Positions 13,418-43,666 of a DNA stretch of 64,000 nt are shown here, in pieces (within the stretch, counting starts at the first letter, position 1; every line of letters begins with the position of its first letter). The stretch lies in NCBI GenBank assembly GCA_965206985.1, contig CBDBLF010000022.1:197597-261596 (forward strand). The letters are read 5' to 3'. Origin of the DNA: Spirochaetota bacterium. Its GTDB lineage: Bacteria; Spirochaetota; Leptospiria; Turneriellales; CBDBES01. The position numbers and the translations under genes are program-made. The notes beneath the pieces were generated by a model. The model saw nothing but the letters and a program-made list of their open reading frames with translations. It searched no databases and was not told the origin of the DNA.

Positions 13418-13435
13418 TAAAATTGAGGTTTTCTG

Positions 13436-19513: not shown

Positions 19514-19626
19514 AGAATCATCTTTCTGATATACCAAGATTGACTCTCAAGAAAGTTTTCGTAGTGGTAAATGGAATCATATTCTCTATTTCTGAGTCTT
19601 CATATATCAGAATTTGCACATAAAAA

Positions 19627-21089: not shown

Positions 21090-21091
21090 TA

Positions 21092-27423: not shown

Positions 27424-27777
27424 CTATGGACTCTTCTTTTGCTTTCTTACTTCTTCCTTGACTACTTTTTTAGCAAAGTCTTTGGCAAATTGAAGGATCA
27501 TGTTTGCAATTTCCTCGTCTTTTGTTGCTGTTTTATAAGTTTCTGACATCCTCACAAAAGCATCGCAGAAGAAGTTGTTCATTTCTCCAATTTGGGTATT
27601 TTCTGTCCATAGATCGATACCAAGAGATTCTTTTTTTTCGCTATCCCACATGGAAATCATAATTGCTTTTACATCCTTTTCTTCTCCATGCGAAGCATCC
27701 GTAGCTGACCATCGAATTTCAATAGGCACATTTTCATCATTTAGTTTTACATTAAAGTTAATATTGGCATCTTTCAT
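27424..27777 (-). CDS. GldC-like protein
   Basis: Recognised pattern F.VKL.DENVP..I.WSA.D...KAIMIS.WD....E.L.IDLWT; from recall, no search run. Confidence 0.7.
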   Translation of the reverse strand: MKDANINFNVKLNDENVPIEIRWSATDASHGEEKDVKAIMISMWDSEKKESLGIDLWTENTQIGEMNNFFCDAFVRMSETYKTATKDEEIANMILQFAKDFAKKVVKEEVRKQKKSP

Positions 27778-28154: not shown

Positions 28155-29252
28155 TTAGGGATGGAGAATAGGATTGTACCCCCCTACGACCATTGGCATC
28201 TTTTGAAATAAATAGTCCAGTCGAAACGGTGGTAAATTTAATATTTGTTTGTCAATAGTTGTGCTTTCCTCTCGGATCAGCTGCCAGGGCGATTTATTCT
28301 CTTTGTAAGAATTTTTTCTTATTGAATTGAACATCAATAGATAGGAGCCAGCTTTGTTGAGAAAGTCTTCTCTTGAATTATACGTTTCATTCAGGTAAAG
28401 GTGATCCTCAATCAATCTATGAGTCGTTTCAACATCAGACTGCCAAGTATGCGCTCCAGCAGGGATCGTCTGGTGTGGCACACCATAACTGGCTAATACT
28501 TTTGTAAACTCCGAATCTCCTTTTTTATTCCAAGCACCAATAAACTCTGAGCCATTATCTGTTTGCCCTCTCGTATTATTTTTCTTTAAATCAACCCCTG
28601 ATTTTACAAGATGATCTAAAATTACCTCCATAAACAGACAAGAGTATGCCATATTATACTCATCTGCAAAAGCTAGAAATTGTAAGCCAGAAAAAACTTC
28701 TCTGAAGGTATATTGATATTTCGGTACAATATTTTCCTGAATATAAGGCCAAAGCTCAGGAATATCGTATAAATGCTTCGTATCTACGTCAAATTGCTTA
28801 AATAAACCCCATAATTTCTTAATTTCACGCAAATTTTGCTTCGTTTTATGTTTTCTACGCTTTTTTTTCAAGAGTGCTTGCTCCCTCCACGCTCTGCGAA
28901 TGGCCTTGACACTCAAGTCTAGTTGGTAAACATTCTTCAGTTCCTGAGCACCAAAGCCTCGACGTTTCTTTTTAAGAAAGCAAACATAAGCCTTTTCAAA
29001 GTCTGTGATTGCATGTGGTGAGTAGTGTGGAGCGTGGCTCTTGTCTTCCAAGCCAACGTATTTCTCTGATTCAAACCTACGAAACCACTTTTTTACTGTT
29101 TTTACAGTCGTTTTAAACATTCTGGCTGTTGGCTTGAAACCATGCTTCTTGGCATAATGAACCATTTGCATTCTGTATAACTTTTTGTCTTTACTATTTC
29201 GCATTACTGCCGAATACCTGTTTAGACAAATAACCTGAGAAGGGTGCTTCAT
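28155..29252 (-). CDS. IS481-like DDE transposase
   Basis: N-terminal HTH, DVDTKHL, QTDNGSEF, VETTH; same protein as the copy at 37710. Confidence 0.92.
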   Translation of the reverse strand: MKHPSQVICLNRYSAVMRNSKDKKLYRMQMVHYAKKHGFKPTARMFKTTVKTVKKWFRRFESEKYVGLEDKSHAPHYSPHAITDFEKAYVCFLKKKRRGFGAQELKNVYQLDLSVKAIRRAWREQALLKKKRRKHKTKQNLREIKKLWGLFKQFDVDTKHLYDIPELWPYIQENIVPKYQYTFREVFSGLQFLAFADEYNMAYSCLFMEVILDHLVKSGVDLKKNNTRGQTDNGSEFIGAWNKKGDSEFTKVLASYGVPHQTIPAGAHTWQSDVETTHRLIEDHLYLNETYNSREDFLNKAGSYLLMFNSIRKNSYKENKSPWQLIREESTTIDKQILNLPPFRLDYLFQKMPMVVGGYNPILHP

Positions 29253-29434
29253 TAGGAACCTCTGTTTTATTTGATGATTTAACGTCGGCCTTTTGATGCA
29301 CCTTTTTTAGGAAAATGTCTTTCACTTGCTCTACCAGTAAACCCAAGCCTTTTGAACCAAATAACTTGATTTGAACCAATTCTGAACCAACTAATGATGG
29401 TCGTAGGGGGGTACTATCATCCTTCTCTCTCCCA
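28157..29434 (-). mobile_element. IS481/IS1202-like insertion sequence, copy 1 (1278 bp)
   Basis: Imperfect terminal IRs sharing GTACCCCCCTACGACCA; 15-bp TSD AGCATATAACCACTT at 28142-28156 and 29435-29449. Confidence 0.93.
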
Positions 29435-29453
29435 AGCATATAACCACTTTTTG

Positions 29454-29481
29454 TTGACTTTCTGTACCGTTACTGTACAGT
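29454..29481 (+). promoter_or_regulatory. Putative sigma70 promoter of GLUG gene 1
   Basis: TTGACT-16 bp-TACAGT; same hexamers and spacing precede genes 2 and 3. Confidence 0.5.
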
Positions 29482-29523
29482 GGTTCTGGGTGGCTTTCTA
29501 AGCTAGCCCAGAAGGGGTTTATT

Positions 29524-31830
29524 ATGTATATAAAGAACAAGACAATCATTCAATCATTCAATCATTCAATCATTCAATCATTCAATCATTCAATCATTCA
29601 ATCATTCAATCATTCAATCATTCAATCATTCAATCATTCAATCATTCAATCATTCAATCATTCAATCATTCAATCATTCAATCATTCAATGAGGTTACTA
29701 TGGGTATTGGCTTTTGTCGCCTTGGGCTTTTTATTTCAATGCGGTAAAAGCGACGATTCTGTCAAAGACGGTGATATTGCTAAAGACGACGACCCTCCGA
29801 CCAATGTAAAGCTTAGTGCTTCAGAGGTCACCTTCAACGATGTGAGTGGGGCAGTGGGTGCCACCTACACGGTTTCGGTGTCACGCCCACCAGCAGCAGA
29901 GAAAACAGTAGAGGTAACCCTAACCTCTACCAATCCATTGCTTGAGGTATCCCCAACAGAGGTTACGTTTACGCCTACGAATGCGAGCCCCCAGACGATT
30001 ACCGTAAAAAGAGCAAATGATGCCAATGATATGATTATGGCCGAGATAACAGATGTCATAACCCATGACATCGCCACGGGCACGTCGCATGACGCGGAGT
30101 TCACTGAATTTGCCATGATGAGAAGCATGGTCAACGTAACGGTGACGCTAACACCAAGTAAGGTAGAGTTGAGCACTCCAGAGGTCACCTTCAACGACGT
30201 GGGTGGGGCAGTGGGTGCCACCTACACGATTTCAGTGTCACGCCCACCAGCAGCAGAGAAAACAGTAGAGATAACCCTAACTTCCACAAATGAATTTCTT
30301 GCGGTATCCCCAAATGTGGTTACGTTTACGTCTACGAATGCGACCCCCCAGACGATTACCGTAAAAAGAGCAAATGATGCAGATGATATTATTACGACCG
30401 AGATGACAGGTGCCATAGAGCATGCCATAACCAGGGGCACCGAGCTCACTGAATTTGCCATGATGAAGAGCACGGTCAACGTGACGGTAACGCCGTACAC
30501 CCCCGATTCTGATGATGACGGGCTCATTGAAATATGGACTGCCACAATGCTAGACAACATGCGATATAATCTGGCGGGCACGAGTTATAAAACCTTGGCA
30601 ACAGATCCAGGTAATTCCTCTGGTTGCCCAGACGCAGGTTGCAACGGCTACGAGCTCATGGCCAACGTCAATTTATTACCCCTGCTTGATGTAAACGGTA
30701 ACGGCGTGATTGACATGATGACAAAGACTGTTGCGGGCAAAGACCATATGGTGATTGATGTAAACAAAGATACCGGCTGGGTTCCGGTGGGTGATAATGC
30801 AAACCGGTTTATGGGAACTTTTGAGGGTAACGGCCGCACCATCGCTAACTTGTGGGTAAATATTTCTTTTTCAGGCCAAGTCTATGCGGGTTTATTTGGT
30901 GCGACAGATGGAATGGCTGCAATTCGTAATGTGGGTGTTGTCTCTGGTGGTGTTTCTTCTTCTGCTTTTAATTCTGATTCTTCTGGTTCTGATTCTTCTT
31001 CTGGTGGTCTGGTGGGGCGATCTGATGATACTTTGACGATCACGAATAGCTACTTTTCTGGGAGTGGTGGTGTTTCTTCTTCTAGTTCTGATTCTTTTTC
31101 TGGTTCTGATTCTTCTTCCGGTGGTCTGGTGGGTTTTTCTGGTGATACTTTGACGATCACGAATAGCTACTTTTCTGGGAGTGGTGGTGTTTCTTCTTTT
31201 TCTTCTAATTCTGATTCTTCTGGTTCTTCTTCTTCTTCCGGTGGTCTGGTGGGGAGTTCTTCTTCTTTAATGATCACGAATAGCTACTTTTCTGGGAGTG
31301 ATGGTGTATCTTCTTCTTCTTCTTCTTCTGATTTGTCTTTTTCTTCTTCTGGTGGTCTGGTGGGTTTTTCTGATGATACTTTGACGATCACGAATGGCTA
31401 CTTTTCTGGGAGTGGTGGTGTTTCTTCTTCTGGTGGTTCTAATCCTGATTCTTTTTCTTATTCCGGTGGTCTGGTGGGTTCTGCTATTATTTTGACGATC
31501 GCGAATAGCTACTTTTCTGGGGGTGGTGGTGTTTCTTCTTCTTCTGGTTTTGATTTTTCTTCCGGTGGTCTGGTGGGTTTTTCTTTTGGTCCTGTGATGA
31601 TGGATAGTTATTGGAACACCGACCAGATTTCCGAAGCAGGGGGTACAGGTGCTGTGGGGCTTACGCTCACTCAACTCAAAGCAACGAGTGGCACCTATCC
31701 TAATTTATTAGGCGACGCGTGGGACCTAGGCACTGACCAGCAACTACCCGCCGTCAAACGATGCATCCTTGATATGGCGGGGATGGGGACTTGTGCATCG
31801 TATGCCGCACTGCTCGGCGGGCAACGGTAA
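29524..31830 (+). CDS. GLUG-repeat surface lipoprotein 1 (two Ig-like repeats, six GGLVG repeats)
   Basis: Lipobox FLFQC; two ~120-aa beta-rich repeats; PDSDDDGLIEI...GCNGYELM...FEGNGRTIANL core; Ser-linked GGLVG repeats. Alternative start at 29689. Confidence 0.8.
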   Translation: MYIKNKTIIQSFNHSIIQSFNHSIIQSFNHSIIQSFNHSIIQSFNHSIIQSFNHSMRLLWVLAFVALGFLFQCGKSDDSVKDGDIAKDDDPPTNVKLSASEVTFNDVSGAVGATYTVSVSRPPAAEKTVEVTLTSTNPLLEVSPTEVTFTPTNASPQTITVKRANDANDMIMAEITDVITHDIATGTSHDAEFTEFAMMRSMVNVTVTLTPSKVELSTPEVTFNDVGGAVGATYTISVSRPPAAEKTVEITLTSTNEFLAVSPNVVTFTSTNATPQTITVKRANDADDIITTEMTGAIEHAITRGTELTEFAMMKSTVNVTVTPYTPDSDDDGLIEIWTATMLDNMRYNLAGTSYKTLATDPGNSSGCPDAGCNGYELMANVNLLPLLDVNGNGVIDMMTKTVAGKDHMVIDVNKDTGWVPVGDNANRFMGTFEGNGRTIANLWVNISFSGQVYAGLFGATDGMAAIRNVGVVSGGVSSSAFNSDSSGSDSSSGGLVGRSDDTLTITNSYFSGSGGVSSSSSDSFSGSDSSSGGLVGFSGDTLTITNSYFSGSGGVSSFSSNSDSSGSSSSSGGLVGSSSSLMITNSYFSGSDGVSSSSSSSDLSFSSSGGLVGFSDDTLTITNGYFSGSGGVSSSGGSNPDSFSYSGGLVGSAIILTIANSYFSGGGGVSSSSGFDFSSGGLVGFSFGPVMMDSYWNTDQISEAGGTGAVGLTLTQLKATSGTYPNLLGDAWDLGTDQQLPAVKRCILDMAGMGTCASYAALLGGQR
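29543..29690 (+). repeat. Octanucleotide simple sequence repeat (CAATCATT)18 plus CAAT
   Basis: 18 perfect units at 29543-29686, inside the ORF starting at 29524. Confidence 0.98.
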
Positions 31831-31867
31831 CCTTAGCGGTCACAAACAGCTTGGGTGATCCTGAGAG

Positions 31868-32305
31868 TGGGTGCGGTGAGGCTTACACTCGCCCAACTCA
31901 AAGCAACGAGTGGCACCTTTCCTGATTTAGGCGACGCGTGGGACCTAGGCACTGATCAGCAACTCCCCGCGGTCAAACGATGCATCCTTGATATGGCGGG
32001 GATGGGGACTTGTGCATCGTATGCCGCACTGCTCGGCGGGCAACGGTAACCTTAGCGGCCGCAAACAGCTTGGGTGATTCTGAGAGTGGGTGCGGTGAGG
32101 CTTACACTCGCCCAACTCAAAGCAACGAGTGGCACCTTTCCTGATTTAGGCGACGCGTGGGACCTAGGCACTGACCAGCAACTCCCCGCGGTCAGACGAT
32201 GCATCCTTGATATGGCGGGGATGGGGACTTGTGCATCGTATGCCGCACTGCTCGGCGGGCAACGGTAACCTTAGCGGTCACAAACAGCTTGGGTGGTCCT
32301 GAGAG
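31868..32305 (+). repeat. Two tandem 219-bp orphan copies of a GLUG-gene 3' end plus downstream spacer
   Basis: TGGGTG junctions at 31868, 32087, 32306; each unit encodes AVRLTLAQLKATSGTFPDLGDAW...LLGGQR*. Confidence 0.93.
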
Positions 32306-32320
32306 TGGGTGTCTACTCAG
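32299..32320 (+). other. Conserved imperfect hairpin CTGAGAGTGGGTGTCTACTCAG downstream of GLUG genes (also 34663-34684, 43512-43533)
   Basis: GAGTGG/CTACTC stem with GTGT loop; identical in three places; no U-tract, so not a clear intrinsic terminator. Confidence 0.55.
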
Positions 32321-32389
32321 ACGCTTTCAACTCCTGCACTCCTAACAGCCACCAAGAGCGAACGAGTATACTAATCAATTCGTGGGACC

Positions 32390-32440
32390 ATGTTCGCAGG
32401 TTTCACTTGCGTAATCAGTATTATGTTTTCAAAGTTCTAA
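32390..32440 (+). pseudogene. C-terminal 16-codon remnant of the Bdr-like gene
   Basis: MFAGFTCVISIMFSKF* matches the end of the protein at 40908-41300. Confidence 0.88.
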
Positions 32441-32574
32441 TTGAGTGAACGATGGTAGTATTTCTAGCGAGAACATAGCGTAGCTCCTGAATACGGTGAG
32501 TGCTCCATTCGATAATAGTGGACAATTAGCCTTCAGAAATTGACATAAATATCTAACATTTTCGTATATAGTGG

Positions 32575-32602
32575 TTGACTTAGTACGTATATCATCTATA
32601 GT
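32575..32602 (+). promoter_or_regulatory. Putative sigma70 promoter of GLUG gene 2
   Basis: TTGACT-16 bp-TATAGT, followed by GGGGAG SD before the GTG at 32653. Confidence 0.55.
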
Positions 32603-32652
32603 GTGCTTCACGAATAATCACAAACTGATTAGAATGGAGGGGAGTTAAGTTT

Positions 32653-34632
32653 GTGAGTATAAATATTCGAATGTATGGAGCACTCAATAAAATGGTAAGA
32701 GGTATATTATTAATATTCGCCTTGGGCTTTTTATTTCAATGCGGTAAAAGCGACGATTCTTCCAAAGATGTCGACCCTCCTCCGACCAATGTAAAGCTCA
32801 GCACTTCAGAGATCACCTTCAAAGATGTGGATGGGGCAGTGGGTGCCACCTACACGATTTCGGTGTCACGCCCACCAGCAGCAGAGAAAACAGTAGAGGT
32901 AACCCTAATCTCCGCCAATTCATTGCTTGTGGTATCCCCAACAGTGGTCAGGTTTACGTCTATGAATGTGAGCCCCCAGACGATTACCGTAAAAAGAGCA
33001 AATGATGCCAATGATATTATTATGGCCGAGATAATAGGTGAGATAAACCATGACATAGCCACGGGCACGTCGTATGACGCGGAGTTCACTGAATTTGCCA
33101 TGATGAAAAGCACGGTCAACGTGATGGTAACGCCAACACTAAGCAATGTAAAGCTCAGCACTCCAGAGGTCACCTTCAACGATGTGGATGGGGCAACGGG
33201 TGCCACCTACACGATTTTGGTGTCACGCCCACCATCAGCAGGAAAAACAGTAGAGGTAACCCTAACCTCCGCCAATTCATTGCTTGTGGTATCCCCAACA
33301 AAGGTTACGTTTACGCCTACGAATGCGAGCCCCCAGACGATTACCGTAAAAAGAGCAAATGATGCCAATGATATTATTATGGCCGAGATAATAGGTGAGA
33401 TAAACCATGACATAGCCACGGGCACGTCGTATGACGCGGAGTTCACTGAATTTGCCATGATGAAAAGCATGGTCAACGTGAGGGTAACGCCGTACATCCC
33501 CGATTCTGACGGCGATGGGCTCATTGAAATATGGAATGCCACAATGCTAAACAACATGCGTTATGATTTGGCGGGCACGAGCTACAAGACCTCGGCAACA
33601 GATCCAGGTGATTCCTCTGGTTGCCCAATCGGTGGTTGTAACGGCTACGAGCTCATGGTCAACATCGATTTATTACCCCTACTTGATGCGAACACGAACG
33701 GCCAAATTGACACGACAACAAAGACTATTGCGAATCAAGTGCATACGGTGATTGATGTAAACAAAGATACCGGCTGGGTTCCGGTGGGTGATAATGTAAA
33801 CCAATTTACGGGCACTTTCGAGGGTAACGGCCGCACCATCGCTAACTTGTGGGTGAATATTTCTTCTTCAGGTGATGCCCATGCGGGTTTATTTGGTCGG
33901 ACTGGTGGAACGATTGCAATTCGTAATGTGGGTGTTGTCTCTGGTAGTGTTTTTTCTTCTTCTTCTGCTTCTGCTTTTTCTTATTCTGGTGGTCTGGTGG
34001 GTCAATCTACTTCTTTGACGATCACGAATAGTTATTTCAGCGGTAAGGGTAGTGTTTTTTCTTCTTCTTCTTCTTCTTCTTCTGCTGCTTCTGCTTTTTC
34101 TGGTGGTCTGGTGGGTCAATCTACTTCTTTGACGATCGCGAATAGCTACTTTTCTGGGAGTGGTGGTGTTTCTTCCTCTTCTTCTTCTTATTCTGCTCTT
34201 TCTTTTTCTGGTGGTCTGGTGGGTCAATCTACTTCTTTGACGATCGCGAATAGCTACTTTTCTGGGAGTGGTGGTGTTTCTTCTTCTTCTTCTTCTTCTT
34301 CGCTTTCTTATTCCGGTGGTCTGGTGGGGCGTGTTTCTTCTTCTTCTTCTTTGACGATCACGAATAGCTATTGGAACACCGACGCAAATCAATCAATAGA
34401 TGGGTCACCCCAGAATCCCAAGCGAGCGCGGGGTAATTCTACGAGTGACCCCATGGGTGCGGTGGGGCTTACGCTAACCGAACTGAAAGAGACGAGTGGC
34501 ACCTATCCTAATTTATTGGGCGACGCGTGGGACCTAGGCACTGACCAGCAACTCCCCGCCGTCAAACGATGCATCCTTGATATGGCGGGGGTCTGTGCAT
34601 CGTATGGCGCGCTGCTCGACGGGCAACGGTAA
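32653..34632 (+). CDS. GLUG-repeat surface lipoprotein 2 (four GGLVG repeats)
   Basis: Paralog of 29524-31830; lipobox FLFQC. Confidence 0.82.
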   Translation: MSINIRMYGALNKMVRGILLIFALGFLFQCGKSDDSSKDVDPPPTNVKLSTSEITFKDVDGAVGATYTISVSRPPAAEKTVEVTLISANSLLVVSPTVVRFTSMNVSPQTITVKRANDANDIIMAEIIGEINHDIATGTSYDAEFTEFAMMKSTVNVMVTPTLSNVKLSTPEVTFNDVDGATGATYTILVSRPPSAGKTVEVTLTSANSLLVVSPTKVTFTPTNASPQTITVKRANDANDIIMAEIIGEINHDIATGTSYDAEFTEFAMMKSMVNVRVTPYIPDSDGDGLIEIWNATMLNNMRYDLAGTSYKTSATDPGDSSGCPIGGCNGYELMVNIDLLPLLDANTNGQIDTTTKTIANQVHTVIDVNKDTGWVPVGDNVNQFTGTFEGNGRTIANLWVNISSSGDAHAGLFGRTGGTIAIRNVGVVSGSVFSSSSASAFSYSGGLVGQSTSLTITNSYFSGKGSVFSSSSSSSSAASAFSGGLVGQSTSLTIANSYFSGSGGVSSSSSSYSALSFSGGLVGQSTSLTIANSYFSGSGGVSSSSSSSSLSYSGGLVGRVSSSSSLTITNSYWNTDANQSIDGSPQNPKRARGNSTSDPMGAVGLTLTELKETSGTYPNLLGDAWDLGTDQQLPAVKRCILDMAGVCASYGALLDGQR

Positions 34633-34759
34633 CCTTAGCGGTTGCAAACAGCTTGGGTGATCCTGAGAGTGGGTGTCTACTCAGACGCTTTCAACTTTTG
34701 CACTCCTAACAGCTACCAAGGGCGAACGAGTGTACAATCGATTAGTGGTCGTGTCATAT

Positions 34760-35524
34760 TTAATCAAAGTTTCTATTTGCGATGAATAATTCTTGTATAG
34801 ACCACTTATGATTCGTCATTTCTGTAGCCATTGCTGTGGTGATTTGAATTGGTTTTCCTCCCTCATACTCAGCTAGACTTGAATGTGGAAGGCAGAAATT
34901 GTAATAATTAGCAACAAAAGAATTATGCCCCTGCATATATTTGAATTTTTTTGAAAAACCCTGACTTTTACGCTCTATTCTATGATTGTGTTGGCGAAGA
35001 GTCAAATTATTCCTTTCTACAGCAAAGGTGTTCATCTGATGACTTACTGAAGAGTTTGCAATATATTCATCTAGTAGCTTTTGATCACCAAAGATTAGAG
35101 ATTTGTCAACTTCCTTACATCTCCCTTTTTCTATTCTCTTAATTATTTGCCCATAACATAGAGATTTGGGTGATTGAAGCTTTCTAGTCATTGAGTCAAA
35201 TTTACCATAAACTGAAAGAATGGCATCACTATATCCCTCATATCCATCAGAGGTAATCAAGAATTTATCTTCCCTCTTTGGCTTACTTCTTGTTTTTACC
35301 TTGGTCAGTAACTTTCTAGCATTCACTGAGGTCCTCTTGCCTGTTATATGCGCTAAAATGAGCTTTTCTACAGGCAATACTGCAGTAAAAGTCCAGATAT
35401 CCCCTATTTCATCACTTAATCGCTCAGTCTCTGATAGATTGTATTGTTTTTTAAAGACAAAACCCCAATGCTCGTCTAATTGAATTTCATTGAAAGACAG
35501 GTTTTTGTATATATTTTTTTTCAA
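34760..35524 (-). CDS. IS1-family transposase, InsB-like DDE part
   Basis: IQLDEHWGFV, SDGYEGY, VERNNLTLRQH. Confidence 0.88.
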   Translation of the reverse strand: MKKNIYKNLSFNEIQLDEHWGFVFKKQYNLSETERLSDEIGDIWTFTAVLPVEKLILAHITGKRTSVNARKLLTKVKTRSKPKREDKFLITSDGYEGYSDAILSVYGKFDSMTRKLQSPKSLCYGQIIKRIEKGRCKEVDKSLIFGDQKLLDEYIANSSVSHQMNTFAVERNNLTLRQHNHRIERKSQGFSKKFKYMQGHNSFVANYYNFCLPHSSLAEYEGGKPIQITTAMATEMTNHKWSIQELFIANRNFD

Positions 35525-35864
35525 CTTTTAGTGAATCTTCACCTGCTGCTTTAACCCAAGCAAGAACTGTATCCTTGCTGATACCAAAGACTCTTCCGGT
35601 AGCTCTAATGCCACAGCCCTCAACTGTGTTTTGTAATACCCGAGTAATGGTTTCTTTGCTTTTCTTGCGACGAAAAAAAATAGTGCCTTTATTCTCTGAA
35701 AAGCATCTACCACAAGCGGTGCACTTTAAATAGGCTATTTGTTTGTACTTACCAGACATATAAGCAAAGCGCACATTTCCTTCATTTACCTTATGATACT
35801 TATGGCAGTCTGTATTTTGACAGCTAAAACCACTTGTATCAAAGGTATATTTTCTTTTGTTCAT
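35487..35864 (-). CDS. IS1-family transposase, InsA-like zinc finger/HTH part
   Basis: CQNTDC, CTACGRCF, GCGIRATGRVFGISKDTV. Confidence 0.88.
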   Translation of the reverse strand: MNKRKYTFDTSGFSCQNTDCHKYHKVNEGNVRFAYMSGKYKQIAYLKCTACGRCFSENKGTIFFRRKKSKETITRVLQNTVEGCGIRATGRVFGISKDTVLAWVKAAGEDSLKVEKKYIQKPVFQ

Positions 35865-35943
35865 AATGAGACATAACCTTAATTTAAGGGAGATAAGTCA
35901 ATTCCTTTTTTAATTGGAAACTTTGATTAAATATGACACGACC

Positions 35944-36054
35944 ATAGAGTCTAGGAAAAAACTTGTTTTGAGCAATATTTAACATAAAAAAAGACCAAAA
36001 GCATGCCAAAACCGACCCAAACCATAAAATCGAGTGTCTTTTTCTATTTCTCAT
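35944..36054 (-). pseudogene. Small/N-terminal ORF cut by IS1 copy 1; paralog of 8282-8407
   Basis: MRNRKRHSILWFGSVLACFWSFFMLNIAQNKFFPRLY runs into the IS end. Confidence 0.5.
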
Positions 36055-36058
36055 CTTT

Positions 36059-36092
36059 GTTCTTAGTTCTTAGTTCTTAGTTCTTAGTTCTT
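36059..36092 (+). repeat. (GTTCTTA)4 heptamer repeat just upstream of the ORF at 36054
   Basis: Directly visible in sequence. Confidence 0.9.
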
Positions 36093-36230
36093 TCTTAATT
36101 TCCATAGAAGCTTTGCAAAATTGAGCCTCAGAGGTTGGAACGCTAGTCAAGCGTCTCCCCAAAAATATTTTTTTTCTGAGGGCGTCTTTGCTTGAATAAA
36201 TCACATCAATCGAAACACTTAACCGTTAAT

Positions 36231-37463
36231 TTAGATAAATCTTTTGATCTTTATTTTCCTTTTTTCTATTTCGGTGATTGTCTCCGTAATTGTTGTTTTA
36301 TACCGTTCAGAAATCTTATCAGAATGCTCCGAAAGGCCTTTTGCGTTTTGGTTCAAAAACTGTTTGAGTGCATCAACCTTCTGTAGGGCATTTTCTCGAT
36401 TTTTTTTGTTCGGAACAAGTTTTCTAGTTACGGTAATTAAATAAAACTTCCCACCCTCAGAGATTACACGAGTTTGATTAATCTTTCCAAATGTTAAAAT
36501 ATCTCGAAAATTGGACGATTTTTCTAAAGGAGCCATAGAAGGAGCACCCGCTGGCTTTTGGTCATCAAGTTTTTCTGAAAGACTAACTTTGTTAATTGAA
36601 TAGACCCTGAGGCCATAATGTGAAGCTACCCCACGAAGTGACTTCTTTTTGAGAGACTCCCTAATCTCTTGTAATAAATCTTGTTCTAATTTCTTTTTTT
36701 TCTCTCTATAGAGGCTGTCTTTAATCGCCTGCCTTTTAATTTGTGTCAACTTTGCATGCTTATCTCTAGACAAATAATCGCTTTTAAATTTCTTTTGTAT
36801 CTCCATTTCCGTTATGAGACTTTTACGTTTCAAAATTTTATTTTTGGATGCCTGATCCATGATACTCACCTGATAACTAATTTGAATTTGCTTTGCATCC
36901 CAAAGTAAAATTTTCTCAGGATTACTAAAAGATTGCACTGCCTCAAGAAGGTTAAGCACATATTGACTAGCGTAGCCATCAACAACATCAGACTCGAACT
37001 CTGAATAACCAATCTGATTTCGACGCAGAACCTCTACTTCAAATTTTTTAAAATCGTGACTCACCTTAGTAAAGTAGGATGGAAAATTTTCTTTCAGATA
37101 GTCTACCATAATGCGCTTTTTTGAACGAGAAATTGGGTACAAACCAATATTTTTTAAAAGAATTAGATTCACTTTATTCTGAATCAACTGGTTAAACAAC
37201 TGTTCTTCAATAGATTTTTTAAAGCCATCAGGAAGATTTTTCCCTTCATATCTTTGCCGAATAAAATTCTCTTTTACTCGGCTCAGCTCAAGCTTTGTAA
37301 GAACCTCGTCACCAATTTCTGCAGCAAGATAGCGACCTGAACCTGCAGAAGAGGAAACAAAATCAGGCATTCCAAAAGTCAGTGTAATGAGAACAACAAT
37401 AAAGCCAATAAAAACGTAACTAAATATCTTATATAGGTGCTGAAGTAAGTTCATGATATACAA
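36231..37463 (-). CDS. SurA N-terminal/PpiD-like membrane-anchored chaperone
   Basis: N-terminal TM helix ending ITLTFGMP, then LAAEIGDEVLTKLEL and a helical body typical of SurA_N domains. Confidence 0.65.
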   Translation of the reverse strand: MYIMNLLQHLYKIFSYVFIGFIVVLITLTFGMPDFVSSSAGSGRYLAAEIGDEVLTKLELSRVKENFIRQRYEGKNLPDGFKKSIEEQLFNQLIQNKVNLILLKNIGLYPISRSKKRIMVDYLKENFPSYFTKVSHDFKKFEVEVLRRNQIGYSEFESDVVDGYASQYVLNLLEAVQSFSNPEKILLWDAKQIQISYQVSIMDQASKNKILKRKSLITEMEIQKKFKSDYLSRDKHAKLTQIKRQAIKDSLYREKKKKLEQDLLQEIRESLKKKSLRGVASHYGLRVYSINKVSLSEKLDDQKPAGAPSMAPLEKSSNFRDILTFGKINQTRVISEGGKFYLITVTRKLVPNKKNRENALQKVDALKQFLNQNAKGLSEHSDKISERYKTTITETITEIEKRKIKIKRFI

Positions 37464-37527
37464 TAATTAGAACACATGGATTCTTTAATTCATTGGTATA
37501 CCTGTCAAGTAAGATTTTACTTTAGTT

Positions 37528-38805
37528 TGGGAGAGAGAAGGATGATAGTACCCCCCTACGACCATCATTAGTTGGTTCAGAATTGGTTCAAATCAAGTTA
37601 TTTGGTTCAAAAGGCTTGGGTTTACTGGTAGAGCAAGTGAAAGACATTTTCCTAAAAAAGGTGCATCAAAAGGCCGACGTTAAATCATCAAATAAAACAG
37701 AGGTTCCTAATGAAGCACCCTTCTCAGGTTATTTGTCTAAACAGGTATTCGGCAGTAATGCGAAATAGTAAAGACAAAAAGTTATACAGAATGCAAATGG
37801 TTCATTATGCCAAGAAGCATGGTTTCAAGCCAACAGCCAGAATGTTTAAAACGACTGTAAAAACAGTAAAAAAGTGGTTTCGTAGGTTTGAATCAGAGAA
37901 ATACGTTGGCTTGGAAGACAAGAGCCACGCTCCACACTACTCACCACATGCAATCACAGACTTTGAAAAGGCTTATGTTTGCTTTCTTAAAAAGAAACGT
38001 CGAGGCTTTGGTGCTCAGGAACTGAAGAATGTTTACCAACTAGACTTGAGTGTCAAGGCCATTCGCAGAGCGTGGAGGGAGCAAGCACTCTTGAAAAAAA
38101 AGCGTAGAAAACATAAAACGAAGCAAAATTTGCGTGAAATTAAGAAATTATGGGGTTTATTTAAGCAATTTGACGTAGATACGAAGCATTTATACGATAT
38201 TCCTGAGCTTTGGCCTTATATTCAGGAAAATATTGTACCGAAATATCAATATACCTTCAGAGAAGTTTTTTCTGGCTTACAATTTCTAGCTTTTGCAGAT
38301 GAGTATAATATGGCATACTCTTGTCTGTTTATGGAGGTAATTTTAGATCATCTTGTAAAATCAGGGGTTGATTTAAAGAAAAATAATACGAGAGGGCAAA
38401 CAGATAATGGCTCAGAGTTTATTGGTGCTTGGAATAAAAAAGGAGATTCGGAGTTTACAAAAGTATTAGCCAGTTATGGTGTGCCACACCAGACGATCCC
38501 TGCTGGAGCGCATACTTGGCAGTCTGATGTTGAAACGACTCATAGATTGATTGAGGATCACCTTTACCTGAATGAAACGTATAATTCAAGAGAAGACTTT
38601 CTCAACAAAGCTGGCTCCTATCTATTGATGTTCAATTCAATAAGAAAAAATTCTTACAAAGAGAATAAATCGCCCTGGCAGCTGATCCGAGAGGAAAGCA
38701 CAACTATTGACAAACAAATATTAAATTTACCACCGTTTCGACTGGACTATTTATTTCAAAAGATGCCAATGGTCGTAGGGGGGTACAATCCTATTCTCCA
38801 TCCCT
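37528..38805 (+). mobile_element. IS481/IS1202-like element, copy 2
   Basis: 1278 bp; 15-bp TSD GATTTTACTTTAGTT at 37513-37527 and 38806-38820. Confidence 0.93.
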
Positions 38806-38807
38806 GA
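37710..38807 (+). CDS. IS481-like DDE transposase
   Basis: Same protein as copy 1. Confidence 0.92.
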   Translation: MKHPSQVICLNRYSAVMRNSKDKKLYRMQMVHYAKKHGFKPTARMFKTTVKTVKKWFRRFESEKYVGLEDKSHAPHYSPHAITDFEKAYVCFLKKKRRGFGAQELKNVYQLDLSVKAIRRAWREQALLKKKRRKHKTKQNLREIKKLWGLFKQFDVDTKHLYDIPELWPYIQENIVPKYQYTFREVFSGLQFLAFADEYNMAYSCLFMEVILDHLVKSGVDLKKNNTRGQTDNGSEFIGAWNKKGDSEFTKVLASYGVPHQTIPAGAHTWQSDVETTHRLIEDHLYLNETYNSREDFLNKAGSYLLMFNSIRKNSYKENKSPWQLIREESTTIDKQILNLPPFRLDYLFQKMPMVVGGYNPILHP

Positions 38808-39133
38808 TTTTACTTTAGTTGCTCTACCATGGGCTCCAGATGATTTTGCTCATTTGCCTTCATTGGTCAAACTTGCTGATACAATAACTTGTTGATTACT
38901 GATAACCTGGGCATTGTATTTTTGTCGGTGTTACCCTCACTTTTCATCTGACTCTGGCATAGAATTTAGGAATGCTTTAGATGCTGATTTTATAAGAAGT
39001 TGCTTTTTTTCAGCAGTTCACTAAGTTTGGATAGCACATCCTGGTAAACCAAAACTTTTCTCATCAGGTTCTCCAAAGGTGATATCTTCATTGTAGTAAG
39101 CATTTCATTAGATTTTTTTCACTTTTAGCCTGA

Positions 39134-39673
39134 GAGCTTGTGCAGGAACTAGGATTTTTCTTGCTTTTCTGTGTTCTTCTTTGATTATGTCTTATTATGA
39201 AACGATTTATGAAAAGTGATAGAGATCAAGTTATGCTGTTTTCGCATACTATAGCAGACAATTTAGAAGAAAATCACGAGGTTTATGCCTTTGCTGCCTT
39301 GTTAGATAAAATTCCTATGAAACCATTTCTTTCTAAGTACTCAAAAGAAGGGGGTCGGGCTTACCATCCGGTTATAATGCTGGGATGCCTTTTTTATGGC
39401 TTTCATCGTGGATGGAGAAGCAGCAGAGAATTACAAAAAGCCTGTGAAGAGAACGACGCCATGCGTTATTTAGTTGGTGGTCATAAAGTAAAGTTTCGGT
39501 CTATTGCTGAATTCCGTGTTAATTTTGGTAAAGAAATTGGCGAAGTTTTTAATTACTCTGTATCTTTGCTATCCCACAAAAAGAAAAATATTGGTACTGA
39601 TGTTAAGGTAGATGGAACTAAAATCAAAGCCAGTGCTGCTGACGATCAAACATACAAAAAGTCAGATTTAGAG
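39134..39673 (+). mobile_element. IS1182-like element, 5' fragment truncated by IS1 copy 2
   Basis: Begins with IR GAGCTTGTGCAGGAACTAGGATTTTTC; ORF 39197 onward matches the transposase N-terminus (GGRAYHP, SSRELQKAC). Confidence 0.9.
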
Positions 39674-40870
39674 GGTCGTGTCATATTTAATCAAAGTTTC
39701 TATTTGCGATGAATAATTCTTGTATAGACCACTTATGATTCGTCATTTCTGTAGCCATTGCTGGGGTGATTTGAATTGGTTTTCCTCCCTCATACTCAGC
39801 TAGACTTGAATGTGGAAGGCAGAAATTGTAATAATTAGCAACAAAAGAATTATGTCCCTGCATATATTTGAATTTTTTTGAAAAACCCTGACTTTTACGC
39901 TCTATTCTATGATTGTGTTGGCGAAGAGTCAAATTATTCCTTTCTACAGCAAAGGTGTTCATCTGATGACTTACTGAAGAGTTTGCAATATATTCATCTA
40001 GTAGCTTTTGATCACCAAAGATTAGAGATTTGTCAACTTCCTTACATCTCCCTTTTTCTATTCTCTTAATTATTTGCCCATAACATAGAGATTTGGGTGA
40101 TTGAAGCTTTCTAGTCATTGAGTCAAATTTACCATAAACTGAAAGAATGGCATCACTATATCCCTCATATCCATCAGAGGTAATCAAGAATTTATCTTCC
40201 CTCTTTGGCTTACTTCTTGTTTTTACCTTGGTCAGTAACTTTCTAGCATTCACTGAGGTCCTCTTGCCTGTTATATGCGCTAAAATGAGCTTTTCTACAG
40301 GCAATACTGCAGTAAAAGTCCAGATATCCCCTATTTCATCACTTAATCGCTCAGTCTCTGATAGATTGTATTGTTTTTTAAAGACAAAACCCCAATGCTC
40401 GTCTAATTGAATTTCATTGAAAGACAGGTTTTTGTATATATTTTTTTTCAACTTTTAGTGAATCTTCACCTGCTGCTTTAACCCAAGCAAGAACTGTATC
40501 CTTGCTGATACCAAAGACTCTTCCGGTAGCTCTAATGCCACAGCCCTCAACTGTGTTTTGTAATACCCGAGTAATGGTTTCTTTGCTTTTCTTGCGACGA
40601 AAAAAAATAGTGCCTTTATTCTCTGAAAAGCATCTACCACAAGCGGTGCACTTTAAATAGGCTATTTGTTTGTACTTACCAGACATATAAGCAAAGCGCA
40701 CATTTCCTTCATTTACCTTATGATACTTATGGCAGTCTGTATTTTGACAGCTAAAACCACTTGTATCAAAGGTATATTTTCTTTTGTTCATAATGAGACA
40801 TAACCTTAATTTAAGAGAGATAAGTCAATTCCTTTTTTAATTGGAAACTTTGATTAAATATGACACGACC
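39674..40870 (-). mobile_element. IS1-family element, copy 2 (ORFs 40414-40791 and 39687-40451)
   Basis: 1197 bp, same terminal IRs as copy 1. Confidence 0.93.
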
Positions 40871-40907
40871 CGATTAGTGGGATCATTTTTTCTTGACAGA
40901 TTGATGC

Positions 40908-41300
40908 TTGGGGTTATCTTCACCCGTGTCTACATCAATTATTGAGTCACAAAAGCCACTTTCTGAGGGTAGTCTTGAATCAGAAAGTTCTCAAAAATTA
41001 CTTTTTTATTTGCTTGAAAAAATGGACAAGCTTGACACAAAGTTTGACGATCGTATTGACAAGCTTGAAGTAAAGCTTGACGATCGTATTGATAAGCTTG
41101 AAGTAAGGCTTGACGATCGTATTGATAAGCTTGACAAAAAACTTGATTTTCAGGTTAGCAAGCTTGATGGTCGTATTGATAAGCTTGATGGTCGTATTGA
41201 TAAGCTTGATGCAAAGCTTGATAGTCGTTTTTTATGGATGATTGGAATCATGTTCGCAGGCTTCACTTGCGTAATCAGCATCATGTTTTCAAAGTTCTAA
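40908..41300 (+). CDS. Bdr-like/DUF1640-like coiled-coil repeat protein with C-terminal TM helix
   Basis: Tandem DRIDKLE/DGRIDKL repeats (33-bp and 21-bp units) followed by FLWMIGIMFAGFTCVISIMF. Confidence 0.65.
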   Translation: MGLSSPVSTSIIESQKPLSEGSLESESSQKLLFYLLEKMDKLDTKFDDRIDKLEVKLDDRIDKLEVRLDDRIDKLDKKLDFQVSKLDGRIDKLDGRIDKLDAKLDSRFLWMIGIMFAGFTCVISIMFSKF

Positions 41301-41433
41301 TTGAGTGAACGATGGTAGTATTTCTAGCGGGAGTATAGCACAGCTCTTGAAAACAGTAAGTGCTCCATTCGATAATAGTGGACAATTAGCCTTCAAAAAT
41401 TGACTAAATATCTAACATTTTCGTATATAGTGT

Positions 41434-41461
41434 TTGACTTAGTATGTATACTATCTACAGT
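41434..41461 (+). promoter_or_regulatory. Putative sigma70 promoter of GLUG gene 3
   Basis: TTGACT-16 bp-TACAGT, then GGGGAG SD before the GTG at 41512. Confidence 0.55.
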
Positions 41462-41511
41462 GCCCTTCGTGAATAATCGCAGACTGATTAGAACGCGGGG
41501 GAGTTAGATTT

Positions 41512-43482
41512 GTGAGTATAAATATTAGAATGTATGGAGTGCTCAATAAAATGTTAAGAGGTATATTATTAATATTCGCCTTGGGCTTTTTATTTCAATG
41601 CGGTAAAAACGACGATTTTGTCAAAGACGGTGACTCTGTCAAAGATGACGACCCTTCTTTGGTCACCTTAAAGCTCAGTACTCCAGAGGTCACCCTCAAC
41701 GATGTGGATGGGGCAACGGGTGTCACCTACACGATTTCGGTTTCACGCCCACCATCAGCAGAGAAAACAATAGAGGTAAACCTAACCTCCGTCAATCCAT
41801 TGCTTGAGGTATCCCCAGAGCGGGTTATGTTTACGCCTACGAATGTGAGCCCCCAGACGATTACCGTGAAAAGAGCAAATGGTGCGGTTGCTATTATTGA
41901 GACCGAGATAACAGGTGAGATAAGTCATGTCATAACTACTGGCACCAGGTTCACTGAATTTGCCATAATGAATGACACGGTCAACGTGACGGTAAGACCA
42001 ACCAATGTAAACCTCAGTACTCCAGAGGTCACCTTCAGCGACGTGAGTGGGGCAGTGGGTGCCACCTACACGATTTCGGTGTCACGCCCACCAGCAGCAG
42101 AGAAAACAGTAGAGGTAACCCTAACCTCCGCCAATTCATCGCTTGTGGTATCCCCAACAGTGGTCAGGTTTACGTCTATGAATGCACGCCCCCAGACGAT
42201 TACCGTAAAAAGAGCAAATGATGCAAATGATATTATTACGACCGAGATAACAGGTGCCATAAATCATGTCATGACCACGGGTGCGTCGTATGACGCGGAG
42301 TTCACTGAATTTGCCATGATGAATGATACGGTCAACGTAAGGGTAACGCCGTATATCCCTGATTCTGACGGTGATGGGCTCATTGAAATATGGGCTGCCG
42401 CAATGCTAGACAACATGCGATATGATCTGGCGGGCACGAGTTATAAAACCTCGGCAATGGATGCAGGTAACGATGCAGGTTGCCCAGCAGATGGTTGTAA
42501 CGGCTACGAGCTCATGGCCAACATTGATTTATTACCCCTGCTTGATGCGAATGGTAACGGCGAAATTGACATGATGCCAAAGATTGTTGCGGATGTTATG
42601 CATACGGTGATTGATGTAGGCTCAGGCAAAGATGAAAGTTGGGTTCCGGTGGGTGATAATTTAAACCGGTTTACGGGCACTTTCGAGGGTAACGGCCGCA
42701 CCATCGCTAACTTGTGGGTGAATATTCCTTCTTCAGGTAATGTCGTCTATGCGGGTTTATTTGGTGTGACTGGTGACTCAGCCGAGATACGCAATGTGGG
42801 AGTTATCTCTGGTGGTGTTTCTTCTTCTCTTTCTTCTTTTTCTTATTCCGGCGGTCTGGTGGGGCGTGTTTTTACTTCTTCTTCTTTGACGATCACGAAT
42901 AGTTATTTCAGCAGCGAAGGTGGTGCTTCTTCTTCTTCTTCTGGTTTTTCTTCTTATTCCGGTGGTCTGGTGGGGTCTTCTGATGCCACTTTGACGATCA
43001 TGAATAGCTACTTTTCTGGGAGTGGTGGTGTTTCTTCTTCTTCTTCTTCTTCTTCTCTTTCTGCTGCTTCTGGCGGTCTGGTGGGTGAATCTATTGGTAC
43101 TTTGACGATCATGAATAGTTATTTCAGCGGTGAAGGTGGTATTTCTTCTTCTGCTGCTTCTGGCGGTCTGGTGGGTGAATCTATTGGTACTTTGACGATC
43201 ATGAATAGTTATTGGAACACCGACGCACCTCAATCAACAGACGGTGGCATGACACCCCAGAGTCCCAAGCGAGCGCGGGGTAATGCTACGGTCGACCCCA
43301 TGGGTGCGGTGAGGCTTACACTCGCCCAACTCAAAGCAACGAGTGGCACCTTTCCTGATTTAGGCGACGCGTGGGCCCTAGGCACTGACCAGCAACTCCC
43401 CGCGGTCAAACGATGCATCCTTGATATGGCGGGGATGGGGACTTGTGCATCGTATGCCGCACTGCTCGGCGGGCAACGGTAA
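41512..43482 (+). CDS. GLUG-repeat surface lipoprotein 3 (four GGLVG repeats)
   Basis: Paralog of genes 1 and 2; lipobox FLFQC. Confidence 0.82.
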   Translation: MSINIRMYGVLNKMLRGILLIFALGFLFQCGKNDDFVKDGDSVKDDDPSLVTLKLSTPEVTLNDVDGATGVTYTISVSRPPSAEKTIEVNLTSVNPLLEVSPERVMFTPTNVSPQTITVKRANGAVAIIETEITGEISHVITTGTRFTEFAIMNDTVNVTVRPTNVNLSTPEVTFSDVSGAVGATYTISVSRPPAAEKTVEVTLTSANSSLVVSPTVVRFTSMNARPQTITVKRANDANDIITTEITGAINHVMTTGASYDAEFTEFAMMNDTVNVRVTPYIPDSDGDGLIEIWAAAMLDNMRYDLAGTSYKTSAMDAGNDAGCPADGCNGYELMANIDLLPLLDANGNGEIDMMPKIVADVMHTVIDVGSGKDESWVPVGDNLNRFTGTFEGNGRTIANLWVNIPSSGNVVYAGLFGVTGDSAEIRNVGVISGGVSSSLSSFSYSGGLVGRVFTSSSLTITNSYFSSEGGASSSSSGFSSYSGGLVGSSDATLTIMNSYFSGSGGVSSSSSSSSLSAASGGLVGESIGTLTIMNSYFSGEGGISSSAASGGLVGESIGTLTIMNSYWNTDAPQSTDGGMTPQSPKRARGNATVDPMGAVRLTLAQLKATSGTFPDLGDAWALGTDQQLPAVKRCILDMAGMGTCASYAALLGGQR

Positions 43483-43666
43483 CCTTAGCGGTCACAAACA
43501 GCTGGGTGATCCTGAGAGTGGGTGTCTACTCAGAAACTTTCAACTTCTGCACTCCTAACAGCCACCAAGGGCGAGGTTCCTACGACACATAAGGGCGAGC
43601 GAGATTTAAGTGTAAAACGATATCTCCCCTTTACACGAAGTCCAGTGATACTTGTGAACAAATGAT

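Follow-up and report, generated by a model that had tools for sequence, protein, structure and literature searches.

GLUG-repeat lipoprotein genes in a spirochaete related to Leptospira: a large family with candidate phase-variable members

Three similar lipoprotein genes standing close together on a spirochaetal chromosome raise the question of whether they serve to diversify a surface protein and, if so, by what kind of mechanism. The genes, which we call g1, g2 and g3, lie in a 64-kb window (the whole stretch of DNA analysed here, from contig CBDBLF010000022.1 of a Spirochaetota bacterium), and each encodes a predicted lipoprotein with GLUG repeats (Table 1). The original prediction described a surface-protein diversification locus analogous to the vls/vmp and tprK systems of Borrelia and Treponema, with g1 possibly serving as a switchable expression site. 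A surface-protein diversification locus in a spirochaete is still the description that fits best; in our reading, however, it is of the contingency-gene rather than the cassette kind, and it is one cluster of a genome-wide family. We consider it probable that g1, g2 and g3 belong to a large lineage-specific family of GLUG lipoproteins of which a subset, including g1, are contingency loci. Functional phase variation of the repeat-bearing genes is, on balance, also favoured. Surface exposure of these lipoproteins is presumed.

The case for a switch begins directly in front of g1, where the CAATCATT octamer forms the only long short-unit repeat in the 64 kb. An AAGGGG ribosome-binding site precedes the leader ATG at 29524; the tract starts 19 nt past the A of this codon and ends at a second ATG, at 29689. 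The earlier suggestion that the octamer controls the reading frame is borne out by the arithmetic: a frame set at ATG 29524 continues across the tract and into g1, and the gain or loss of one copy brings a stop at 29692 or 29747. With the present 18.5 copies the leader and g1 form a fused product of 768 residues, in which a 55-residue extension stands before the signal peptide. With one copy more or two fewer, the leader stop (TGA 29690-29692) overlaps ATG 29689 in the arrangement ATGA. With one copy fewer or two more, the leader passes out of frame across the signal peptide and stops at 29747.

Leaders of the same design recur in other members of the family. Four units (CAATCATT, ACAGAACT, ACCTACAA and GGTTTACTCAA), all of 8 or 11 nt and none a multiple of three, occupy the same leader position in at least seven relatives, in 2 to 23 copies; tracts of 9.5 to 23 copies are near-perfect (besides a degenerate ACCTACAA tract of 7.6 copies) and lie 3' of an ATG with a ribosome-binding site. 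The gene for P0006, which shares the contig of the window, carries CAATCATT in fewer copies than g1, fused in frame and with Ile in place of the signal-peptide Met; its intermediate copy number was estimated from four 8-residue repeats in its protein. Contig L007, from another sample, holds two further examples: gene 1, whose promoter and leader are nearly those of g1, has 9.5 copies of CAATCATT and a leader that ends in ATGA on the start codon, and gene 2 has two imperfect copies (CAATCGTT TAATCGTT), a proto-repeat, in a leader that has a ribosome-binding site and likewise ends in ATGA on the start codon. In L006 the unit is the 11-mer GGTTTACTCAA, present in 18.0 copies and fused in frame, and there is no start codon between the repeat and the lipobox cysteine, such that full length is reached only at n or n +/- 3 copies. 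Four leaders on L001 and L128 complete the set. Copy 1 of L001 (ACAGAACT x23.1), copy B of L128 (ACAGAACT x13.8) and copy A of L128 (the degenerate ACCTACAA x7.6, 88% match) have a leader stop just 3' of the repeat; only copy 2 of L001, with 21.1 copies of ACAGAACT, reads through, as a 147-residue leader ending in ATGTGTGA on the start codon. The leader frame 3' of the repeat is open in all four, and their internal indels, of -3 and +6 nt, preserve it; copy A of L128 has an extra gap of 49 nt, not a multiple of three, at the repeat boundary. Copy numbers therefore differ among paralogs and strains, as represented by single assemblies: 2, 9.5 and 18.5 for CAATCATT, with P0006 intermediate, and 13.8, 21.1 and 23.1 for ACAGAACT.

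This recurrence of four units in a translated leader is, as far as sequence can tell, the anatomy of a translational contingency switch, from which we infer actual switching, a high rate of copy-number change and the identity of the ON frame. We propose that a repeat prone to slippage, with units of 8 or 11 nt, sits in a short leader translated from an ATG with a ribosome-binding site, and that its copy number would set the frame and thereby select one of three states. In the first, the leader would be fused to the lipoprotein precursor. In the second, the leader stop would fall exactly on the lipoprotein start codon (ATGA or ATGTGTGA), which would allow termination-reinitiation coupling. In the third, the leader would stop early or pass the start codon out of frame. 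Since copy number would set the frame, each such gene would flip on and off randomly and independently, and a population would come to hold a mixed repertoire of GLUG lipoproteins. The product consists, from N- to C-terminus, of a lipobox signal peptide, a variable module (here two Ig-like or Calx-beta-like sandwiches), a GLUG beta-helix (SGGLVG...NSYFSG) with poly-Ser loops, and a two-cysteine tail. In its most far-reaching form the proposal holds that a three-state translational switch (fused, stop on start codon, or blocked), not described for spirochaetes, acts independently on many members of a beta-helix lipoprotein family at least 25 strong, in relatives of Leptospira that are free-living or environmental; this we put forward tentatively, as a possibility to which we give less than even weight. 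If true, the cell surface would vary combinatorially in a setting other than host immunity, for instance as a defence against phages or grazers or as a means of attachment.

The same repeats might instead tune transcription or mRNA level gradually by their length, leaving translation alone, as reported for the hmw1A/hmw2A repeats of Haemophilus influenzae (PMC2651432). Besides that precedent, the position of the g1 tract is compatible with such an effect, since it lies 3' of a promoter-like site (29454-29481) and would therefore be transcribed; in L001 and L128 some 230-270 bp separate the tract from the lipoprotein start downstream of it, and after the tract come an A-run, a short stem and a T-run. 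No unit, however, is a multiple of three (all measure 8 or 11 nt), the tract is invariably preceded by a ribosome-binding site and an ATG, and the leader frame downstream is open and ends on the start codon. Unit length, leader ATG and open frame are all predicted by a translational switch, whereas an effect on spacing or stability requires none of them. We regard a purely graded transcriptional role as improbable, and note that translational and transcriptional mechanisms could coexist.

Several observations weigh against the contingency-gene account. Hypervariability is read from differences among paralogs and strains that are known from single assemblies. There is no such repeat in g2, in g3 or in several arrays of relatives (L003, L005), and the switch therefore covers only part of the family. 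In its present state g1 would yield a precursor with 55 residues before the signal peptide, the export of which is putative, and the ON frame is ambiguous. The genome is rich in insertion sequences (ISs) and shows decay, in the form of a gene remnant and orphan tails, and some of the features described here may be debris. Finally, (CAATCATT)n with n of at least 4 was found on at least 120 unrelated metagenome contigs (L008-L127), none with a GLUG gene nearby; it is therefore a generally slippage-prone sequence and not a dedicated signal, and for the same reason we rejected the octamer as a family-specific marker. These contigs range from 22 to 64% G+C, with arrays of up to 15 copies, and the octamer seems to expand repeatedly in very different organisms. 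Several of the tracts stand directly before the starts of open reading frames (ORFs), for example in L090 (a lipoprotein-like MRKTLFVLLLLLAGFSYHTMAC), L022, L086, L096 and L115.

Most of these points are also what one would expect of an ordinary fast-evolving multigene family with no programmed switch, in which repeats, orphans and mosaics are neutral by-products of an IS-rich, partly decaying genome. The wide occurrence of the octamer, the many family members without any 5' repeat, a comparison of copy numbers drawn from single assemblies instead of populations, and the decay at the locus itself (the remnant of a neighbouring gene, the orphan tails, and the IS1-like, IS481-like and IS1182-like insertions) are all in its favour. 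It does not readily account for four different units at the same leader position in different lineages, in up to 23 perfect copies, nor for the conservation of both the leader frame and the start-codon overlap, where the two internal indels spare the frame. It is equally at odds with L006 and P0006, in which the lipoprotein ORF has no start of its own 3' of the repeat. We judge this explanation unlikely, while giving it more credit than the transcriptional one.

Sequence exchange among the paralogs is a separate matter, on which the evidence is stronger. In a three-gene test, in which each informative site shows which two genes agree, 422 informative sites gave 233 adjacent pairs of the same pattern against 146 +/- 9.6 in 5000 permutations. 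The clustering persists without the coil repeats (z 5.6), in the Ig modules alone (z 4.1) and in the core alone (z 3.9). Identities among the Ig modules follow neither gene nor position (92% between the two modules of g2, 90% between the first modules of g1 and g2, 83% between the two modules of g1). Two proteins of the same or a closely related genome arose by rearrangement within arrays: P0002 (1028 residues) reads two complete core-coil-tail units as one ORF, and in P0026 the N-terminus of the Bdr-like coiled-coil protein described below is joined to a GLUG gene. The paralog mosaicism claimed in the original prediction is thus well founded (clustered site patterns, z 5.6 to 9, pointing to segmental exchange between copies), and with the module identities, the orphan tails considered below and the fused genes, recombination among paralogs is well supported; we hold it to be highly probable. 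Local acceleration in one gene could partly lie behind the clustered site patterns, which is a further point on the debit side. Diversification would proceed by ordinary homologous processes, namely tandem duplication and segment exchange between paralogs, together with unequal crossing-over for which the 108-117-bp coil repeats and the (TCT)n linkers are the sites.

Mosaic site patterns in g1, g2 and g3 are also what a cassette system would leave, in which g1 is the sole expression site and g2, g3 and the orphan ends are donors by segmental gene conversion, as in vls/vmp and tprK; the spirochaete host fits this idea as well. The orphan 3' ends first noted are two in number and lie after g1, at 31855-32049 and 32074-32268. 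A 219-bp unit, consisting of the tail, the stop codon and a 36-bp spacer, is repeated 3.0 times at 31648-32311 (95% match, Tandem Repeats Finder), and each orphan is the 64-residue ORF left by this tandem triplication, with the junction at a GGGTG microhomology. Both orphan tails are closer to the g3 tail (97-98% identity) than to the adjoining g1 tail (94-95%), as a donor role would allow. They cover the most conserved part of the protein, however, and differ by 2-3% from live tails; we rejected them as silent cassettes, on account of their origin by tandem duplication at a microhomology and their almost complete lack of diversity.

Other features of the locus are equally hard to reconcile with donor cassettes. 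The comparison with vls, vmp and tprK calls for a single promoter-bearing expression site, and here a promoter-like site, ribosome-binding site, start codon and signal peptide are present in every one of g1, g2 and g3. In g2 and g3 these comprise a TTGACT-16-TATAGT or TTGACT-16-TACAGT element and a strong GGAGGGGAG ribosome-binding site. No array of promoterless cassettes was found in the window, which holds only the two 64-residue orphans of the conserved tail; full-length paralogs are scattered over the genome by the dozen; the octamer recurs in P0006 on the same contig, and g1 cannot then be a unique switchable site; and nothing points to a host-living organism. Cassette-type antigenic variation is in our view very improbable, the least credible of the explanations weighed here. 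Contingency genes that exchange segments remain the reading that we prefer.

The organism and the extent of the family bear on this preference. The window is chromosomal, containing polA, pabB, asd, a nuo operon and the gene for methylmalonyl-CoA mutase. NuoD shares 79-80% identity with its counterparts in metagenome-assembled genomes (MAGs) labelled 'Spirochaetia bacterium', and about 70% with those in Leptospiraceae MAGs and in species of Leptospira. The host is accordingly an uncultured, Leptospirales-related spirochaete, akin to the genus Leptospira yet outside it, in agreement with the spirochaetal origin first proposed. Plasmid searches, made with g2 and with the transposase of the IS481-like element, gave no taxonomic information. 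Relatives show the gene order flbD-motA-motB-fliL-fliM. A search with g2 returned 433 relatives, none of them named, and the close ones all come from metagenome assemblies in ENA/NCBI. The 544-kb contig of the window has at least 10 paralogs, and a single 2.13-Mb contig from a related genome has more than 25; others are found on further contigs, possibly of the same or closely related genomes. That the family had not been recognised as described agrees with what we found: it has no name in any source searched, cluster look-ups included, our literature search returned no description of it, and searches of NCBIfam, Pfam and PHROGs yielded no family covering the Ig modules, the Cys tail or the core's N-terminal cap. 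A scan of genome contigs for relatives gave only a single distant match, in Gammaproteobacteria.

Family members keep the core, coils and tail. The N-terminal module varies, with 0, 1 or 2 Ig-like repeats, FN3 domains, Cys-rich repeats or long unrelated regions; the coil number runs from 3 to 14, and the Ser linkers vary in length. Head-to-tail arrays are the rule, as in L003 and L005, which have four genes apiece, and in L001, which has three. The 5' ends in the window's genome are of two kinds: type A, MRLLWVLxFVALGFLFQC, in g1, and type B, MSxNxRMxGxxNKMVRGILLIF...FLFQC, in g2 and g3. Some arrays of relatives have additional components. A G+C-rich tandem repeat of 44-46 bp, in up to 13 copies (consensus GACAGTCGCGAGTGATGCTTCGCTCGCTGAGCGAAGAGTGACGACC), follows GLUG genes in L001 (12103-13317, 17651-18269) and L128 (12157-12411, 12877-13136) and is absent from the 64-kb window. 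Rpn/Transposase_31-type (PD-(D/E)XK) genes stand between GLUG genes in L001 (13979-15064) and L128 (4348-5253, 7820-8809, 8880-9458) and contain internal 12-bp repeats (GMTKGMTKG...) that also occur in L003 and L004; they might promote recombination in the GLUG clusters. After two of the four GLUG genes of L003 comes a 121-residue ORF with a divergent tail motif (...AWNFGTLMQIPALKYADYDGTG...; 11949-12314, 20950-21315), which may be another kind of orphan or accessory tail.

Within the window, the architecture first described for g1, g2 and g3 was recovered in nearly every element. The three are paralogous lipoprotein genes with the starts originally assigned to them, and their proteins are 72-73% identical. 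All three have the lipobox sequence ALGFLFQCGK, an acidic linker, two Ig-like modules of 357 bp (119 residues), a conserved core (DSDGDGLIEIW...GCP..GCNGYEL...FEGNGRTIANLWVN), SGGLVG coils numbering 6, 4 and 4, and a conserved tail with two cysteines (...AVKRCILDMAG..CASY..LLxGQR) that ends in LLxGQR. The coil unit, of about 37 residues, consists of an S-rich linker, SGGLVG and xxLTITNSYFSG. A charged n-region and a hydrophobic core precede FLFQ-C; the lipobox cysteine is nearly invariant across the family, and Gln at -1 is non-canonical for E. coli. The 64 kb contain no GLUG fragments besides these genes and the two orphan tails. G+C content is 47-48% in the GLUG genes (30001-34000 and 42001-44000) and 36-39% in their surroundings, which could reflect a foreign origin, biased gene conversion or the amino-acid composition (Gly, Ser, Ala, Thr, Val). 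DNA identity among the three genes is no more than about 80-90%, and similar arrays stand on four other contigs (L001, L003, L005, L007); we accordingly consider an assembly artefact unlikely.

The repeating unit proposed for the array, [Bdr-like gene]-[promoter]-[GLUG gene]-[hairpin spacer], fared less well. Up to the GLUG gene it is complete only for g3; g2 retains only the last 57 bp of the coiled-coil gene, and before g1 that gene is absent, with an IS481-like element and a different leader in its place. The promoter region measures 211 bp from the stop of the Bdr-like gene to the GTG, not about 260 bp. A hairpin or terminator in the conserved 3' spacer was considered and rejected, because the spacers fold no better than shuffled sequence (z -0.9, -0.5 and +1.2).

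Structure prediction agrees with the expected Ig stalk and beta-solenoid, which are confirmed in that sense. The full-length AlphaFold2 model of g2 has a mean predicted local distance difference test score (pLDDT) of 75.6 and shows two N-terminal beta-sandwiches, which match tandem Calx-beta domains (CBD12 of NCX1, CALX; template modelling (TM) scores 0.54-0.59). A separate model of core, coils and tail (pLDDT 82.5, predicted TM score 0.83) forms a right-handed beta-helix, in which the Cys tail, the last 45 or so residues, is the low-confidence part. Its best match in the PDB is 3n6z, a Bacteroides 'putative IgA1 protease' fragment (E 1e-7, TM 0.50/0.56), followed by the IgA1 proteases 7uvk, 7uvl and 6xja and then, weakly, by pectate-lyase-like enzymes and beta-helix adhesins. 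The Pfam family Glug (PF07581) matches g2 at 23.0 bits (cut-off 20.5) and g1 at 19.4, below the cut-off, and gives no match to g3 at E <= 0.01; precomputed PF07581 matches exist for many relatives. The anatomy and fold class of the locus are in our estimation nearly certain.

The GLUG beta-helix of IgA1 proteases (3n6z, 7uvk, 6xja) and adhesins such as SRRP of L. reuteri and PfbA of S. pneumoniae are thus the best structural counterparts of the core-coil region. In contrast to these, the proteins described here have no M26 domain and no LPXTG motif, a lipid anchor is predicted at their N-terminus, and identity is 15-19%. Neither Pfam nor NCBIfam gave a match to any peptidase family, M26 included, and the structural match is confined to the beta-helix; IgA1 protease function was rejected because there is no peptidase domain. 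As modelled, the architecture resembles that of an adhesin.

A small gene encoding a coiled-coil membrane protein accompanies the GLUG genes. The copy before g3 has 11-residue repeats (DDRIDKLxxKL) and a C-terminal membrane anchor; the one before g2 appears, from our reading of the sequence, to have been deleted at a short homology. Close homologues are found only on contigs that bear GLUG genes, usually between them, and with varying repeat number. L001 has four copies (13378-13632, 18291-18731, 18881-19255 and 19405-19791), with near-identical ends and 84 to 146 residues, the difference in size being due to the number of 11-residue repeats; three of the four are in tandem directly ahead of a GLUG gene. 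Such a co-varying protein may be a functional partner of the GLUG lipoproteins. The label 'Bdr-like' describes a likeness in architecture only. Like Borrelia Bdr and phage XhlA, the protein is small, has coiled-coil repeats that vary in number and carries a membrane anchor at its C-terminus, and it forms a multicopy family next to lipoprotein paralogs; unlike in Borrelia, the window's 130-residue protein has no match to Bdr models, only weak ones to the coiled-coil families DUF7201 and DUF7310, and its remote relatives are proteins of the XhlA (PF10779)/DUF7310 type.

The array has been interrupted by mobile elements, whose load in the window comprises four IS1-like copies whose ends are intact, a further divergent 254-residue transposase ORF (58461-59225), three IS481-like copies, and elements of the IS1182-like and IS3-like kinds. 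The '6.1-kb insertion' first recognised between g2 and g3 is an IS1-like composite that splits the array; on its removal the g2 spacer joins the region upstream of the small coiled-coil gene. An 8-bp target duplication, CGATTAGT, stands on both sides (34739-34746 and 40871-40878), and since this is intact the composite looks recently moved, with a passenger gene. Besides a SurA_N-like gene on the minus strand (36231-37463), the composite carries an IS481-like copy and a gene for a DUF772 transposase that the second IS1-like copy truncates. In the interval from the first IS1-like copy to the SurA_N-like gene stands a heptamer, TCTTAGT x5.6 (36054-36092); L001 has heptamers of its own, AATTGAT x3.9 and x5.7. 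The IS481-like element in front of g1 has an identical inverted copy at 37527-38805, the arms of 1279 nt being 100% complementary. Both in the window and in L007 (2142-3420; a different paralog from another sample), such an element stands in the same orientation some 20 bp 5' of a type-A GLUG promoter, counted from its -35 box, and the shared position could reflect target preference, a promoter effect or co-duplication. Outside the array, beside methylmalonyl-CoA mutase, a gene at 27424-27777 encodes a GldC-like protein (PF19937, E 1e-28; the family is named after gliding motility in Bacteroidota).

Table 1. Features of the GLUG lipoprotein locus, in window coordinates.
Feature	Position	Strand	Description
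g1, GLUG lipoprotein gene	29689..31830	+	713 aa from ATG 29689, 768 aa from ATG 29524; 6 SGGLVG coils; = P0005
g2, GLUG lipoprotein gene	32653..34632	+	659 aa, 4 coils; Glug 23.0 bits (cut-off 20.5); AlphaFold2 models
g3, GLUG lipoprotein gene	41512..43482	+	656 aa, 4 coils; = P0008
Translated leader of g1	29524..29690	+	ATG 29524, then (CAATCATT)x18.5 at 29543-29690, 100% match (Tandem Repeats Finder)
Promoter-like site of g1	29454..29481	+	TTGACT-16-TACAGT; homologous sequence kept in L007
Type-B 5' region of g2	32440..32652	+	promoter-like TTGACT-16-TATAGT (32575-32602), GGAGGGGAG before GTG; DNA repeats D12, D16 88-91% identical to g3 upstream
Type-B 5' region of g3	41301..41511	+	promoter-like TTGACT-16-TACAGT (41434-41461)
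Two orphan 3' ends	31855..32268	+	tandem 219-bp duplicates of tail, stop codon and spacer
3' spacer common to all three units	43483..43575	+	DNA repeats D5, D9; no significant hairpin
'Bdr-like' coiled-coil gene	40908..41300	+	130 aa; 11-residue coiled-coil repeats (DDRIDKLxxKL), C-terminal membrane anchor
3' remnant of deleted Bdr-like gene	32383..32439	+	tblastn, residues 113-130 at 94%; DNA repeat D16 91% identical to 41243-41404
IS481-like element directly 5' of g1 promoter	28157..29435	-	365-aa transposase = NF033577 IS481
IS1-like composite insertion	34747..40870	.	6124 bp; two direct 1197-bp IS1-like copies at its ends, with 27-bp inverted ends

Surface variation of spirochaetes outside Borrelia and Treponema is, to our knowledge, poorly known, and the literature searched gave no case, in Leptospira or its relatives, of surface lipoproteins whose phase variation is driven by repeats. 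The systems first invoked for comparison, vlsE/vls of Borrelia and tprK of T. pallidum, share with the GLUG locus a spirochaete host, surface-protein paralogs and evidence of segmental exchange. Exchange is not specific to cassette systems, however, and vlsE/vls and tprK consist of one expression site with promoterless cassettes for variable regions, whereas here the genes are complete and the truncated copies hold only a conserved region.

By analogy, the GLUG system appears nearer to families in which each gene switches alone, such as opa of Neisseria and vlp of Mycoplasma. The opa genes form a multigene family with their own promoters; CTCTT repeats in the region coding for the leader peptide set the frame by their copy number, and the paralogs exchange segments. 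The GLUG genes resemble them as complete surface-protein genes with their own promoter-like sites, a 5' repeat (where present) that is not a multiple of three, and segment exchange. They differ in that opa genes encode beta-barrel outer-membrane proteins and have a 5-nt unit inside the signal peptide in place of Ig-stalk and beta-helix lipoproteins with units of 8 or 11 nt, which here often lie in a separate leader ORF ending on the start codon, and in part of the family only. In vlp of Mycoplasma hyorhinis and vsp of M. bovis, clustered lipoprotein paralogs share a conserved signal peptide and lipobox, in-frame repeats alter their size, a simple repeat turns each gene on or off, and IS elements lie in the cluster; the vlp switch is a poly-A tract in the promoter and acts on transcription. 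The likeness lies in the lipoprotein paralog cluster with IS elements and in the combination of phase and size variation. We found no sequence similarity between vlp/vsp and the GLUG family, and vlp proteins are short extended repeat chains as opposed to folded beta-helices. Closest in the type of repeat are hmw1A and hmw2A of H. influenzae, large beta-helical adhesin genes with 7-, 8- or 9-nt repeats upstream (for example, GCATCATC x12-15), in which the octanucleotide repeats are known phase-variation candidates (PMC2651432). Those repeats, in contrast to the leaders described here, lie in the promoter or untranslated region and act on transcription in a graded manner, and there are two hmw genes per genome, with two-partner secretion.

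The GLUG family offers a tractable case for such comparisons, being large, unnamed in the sources searched and of a predicted adhesin-type fold, and because the switch is readable from sequence alone, long-read metagenomes would allow a direct count of its states. Should the organisms be free-living, their contingency genes would be driven by something other than host immunity. Taken as analogues, opa, vlp/vsp and hmw seem the better functional counterparts, all of them without homology to the GLUG family, and with a leader stop placed on the start codon the known kinds of contingency locus would gain a variant based on translational coupling.

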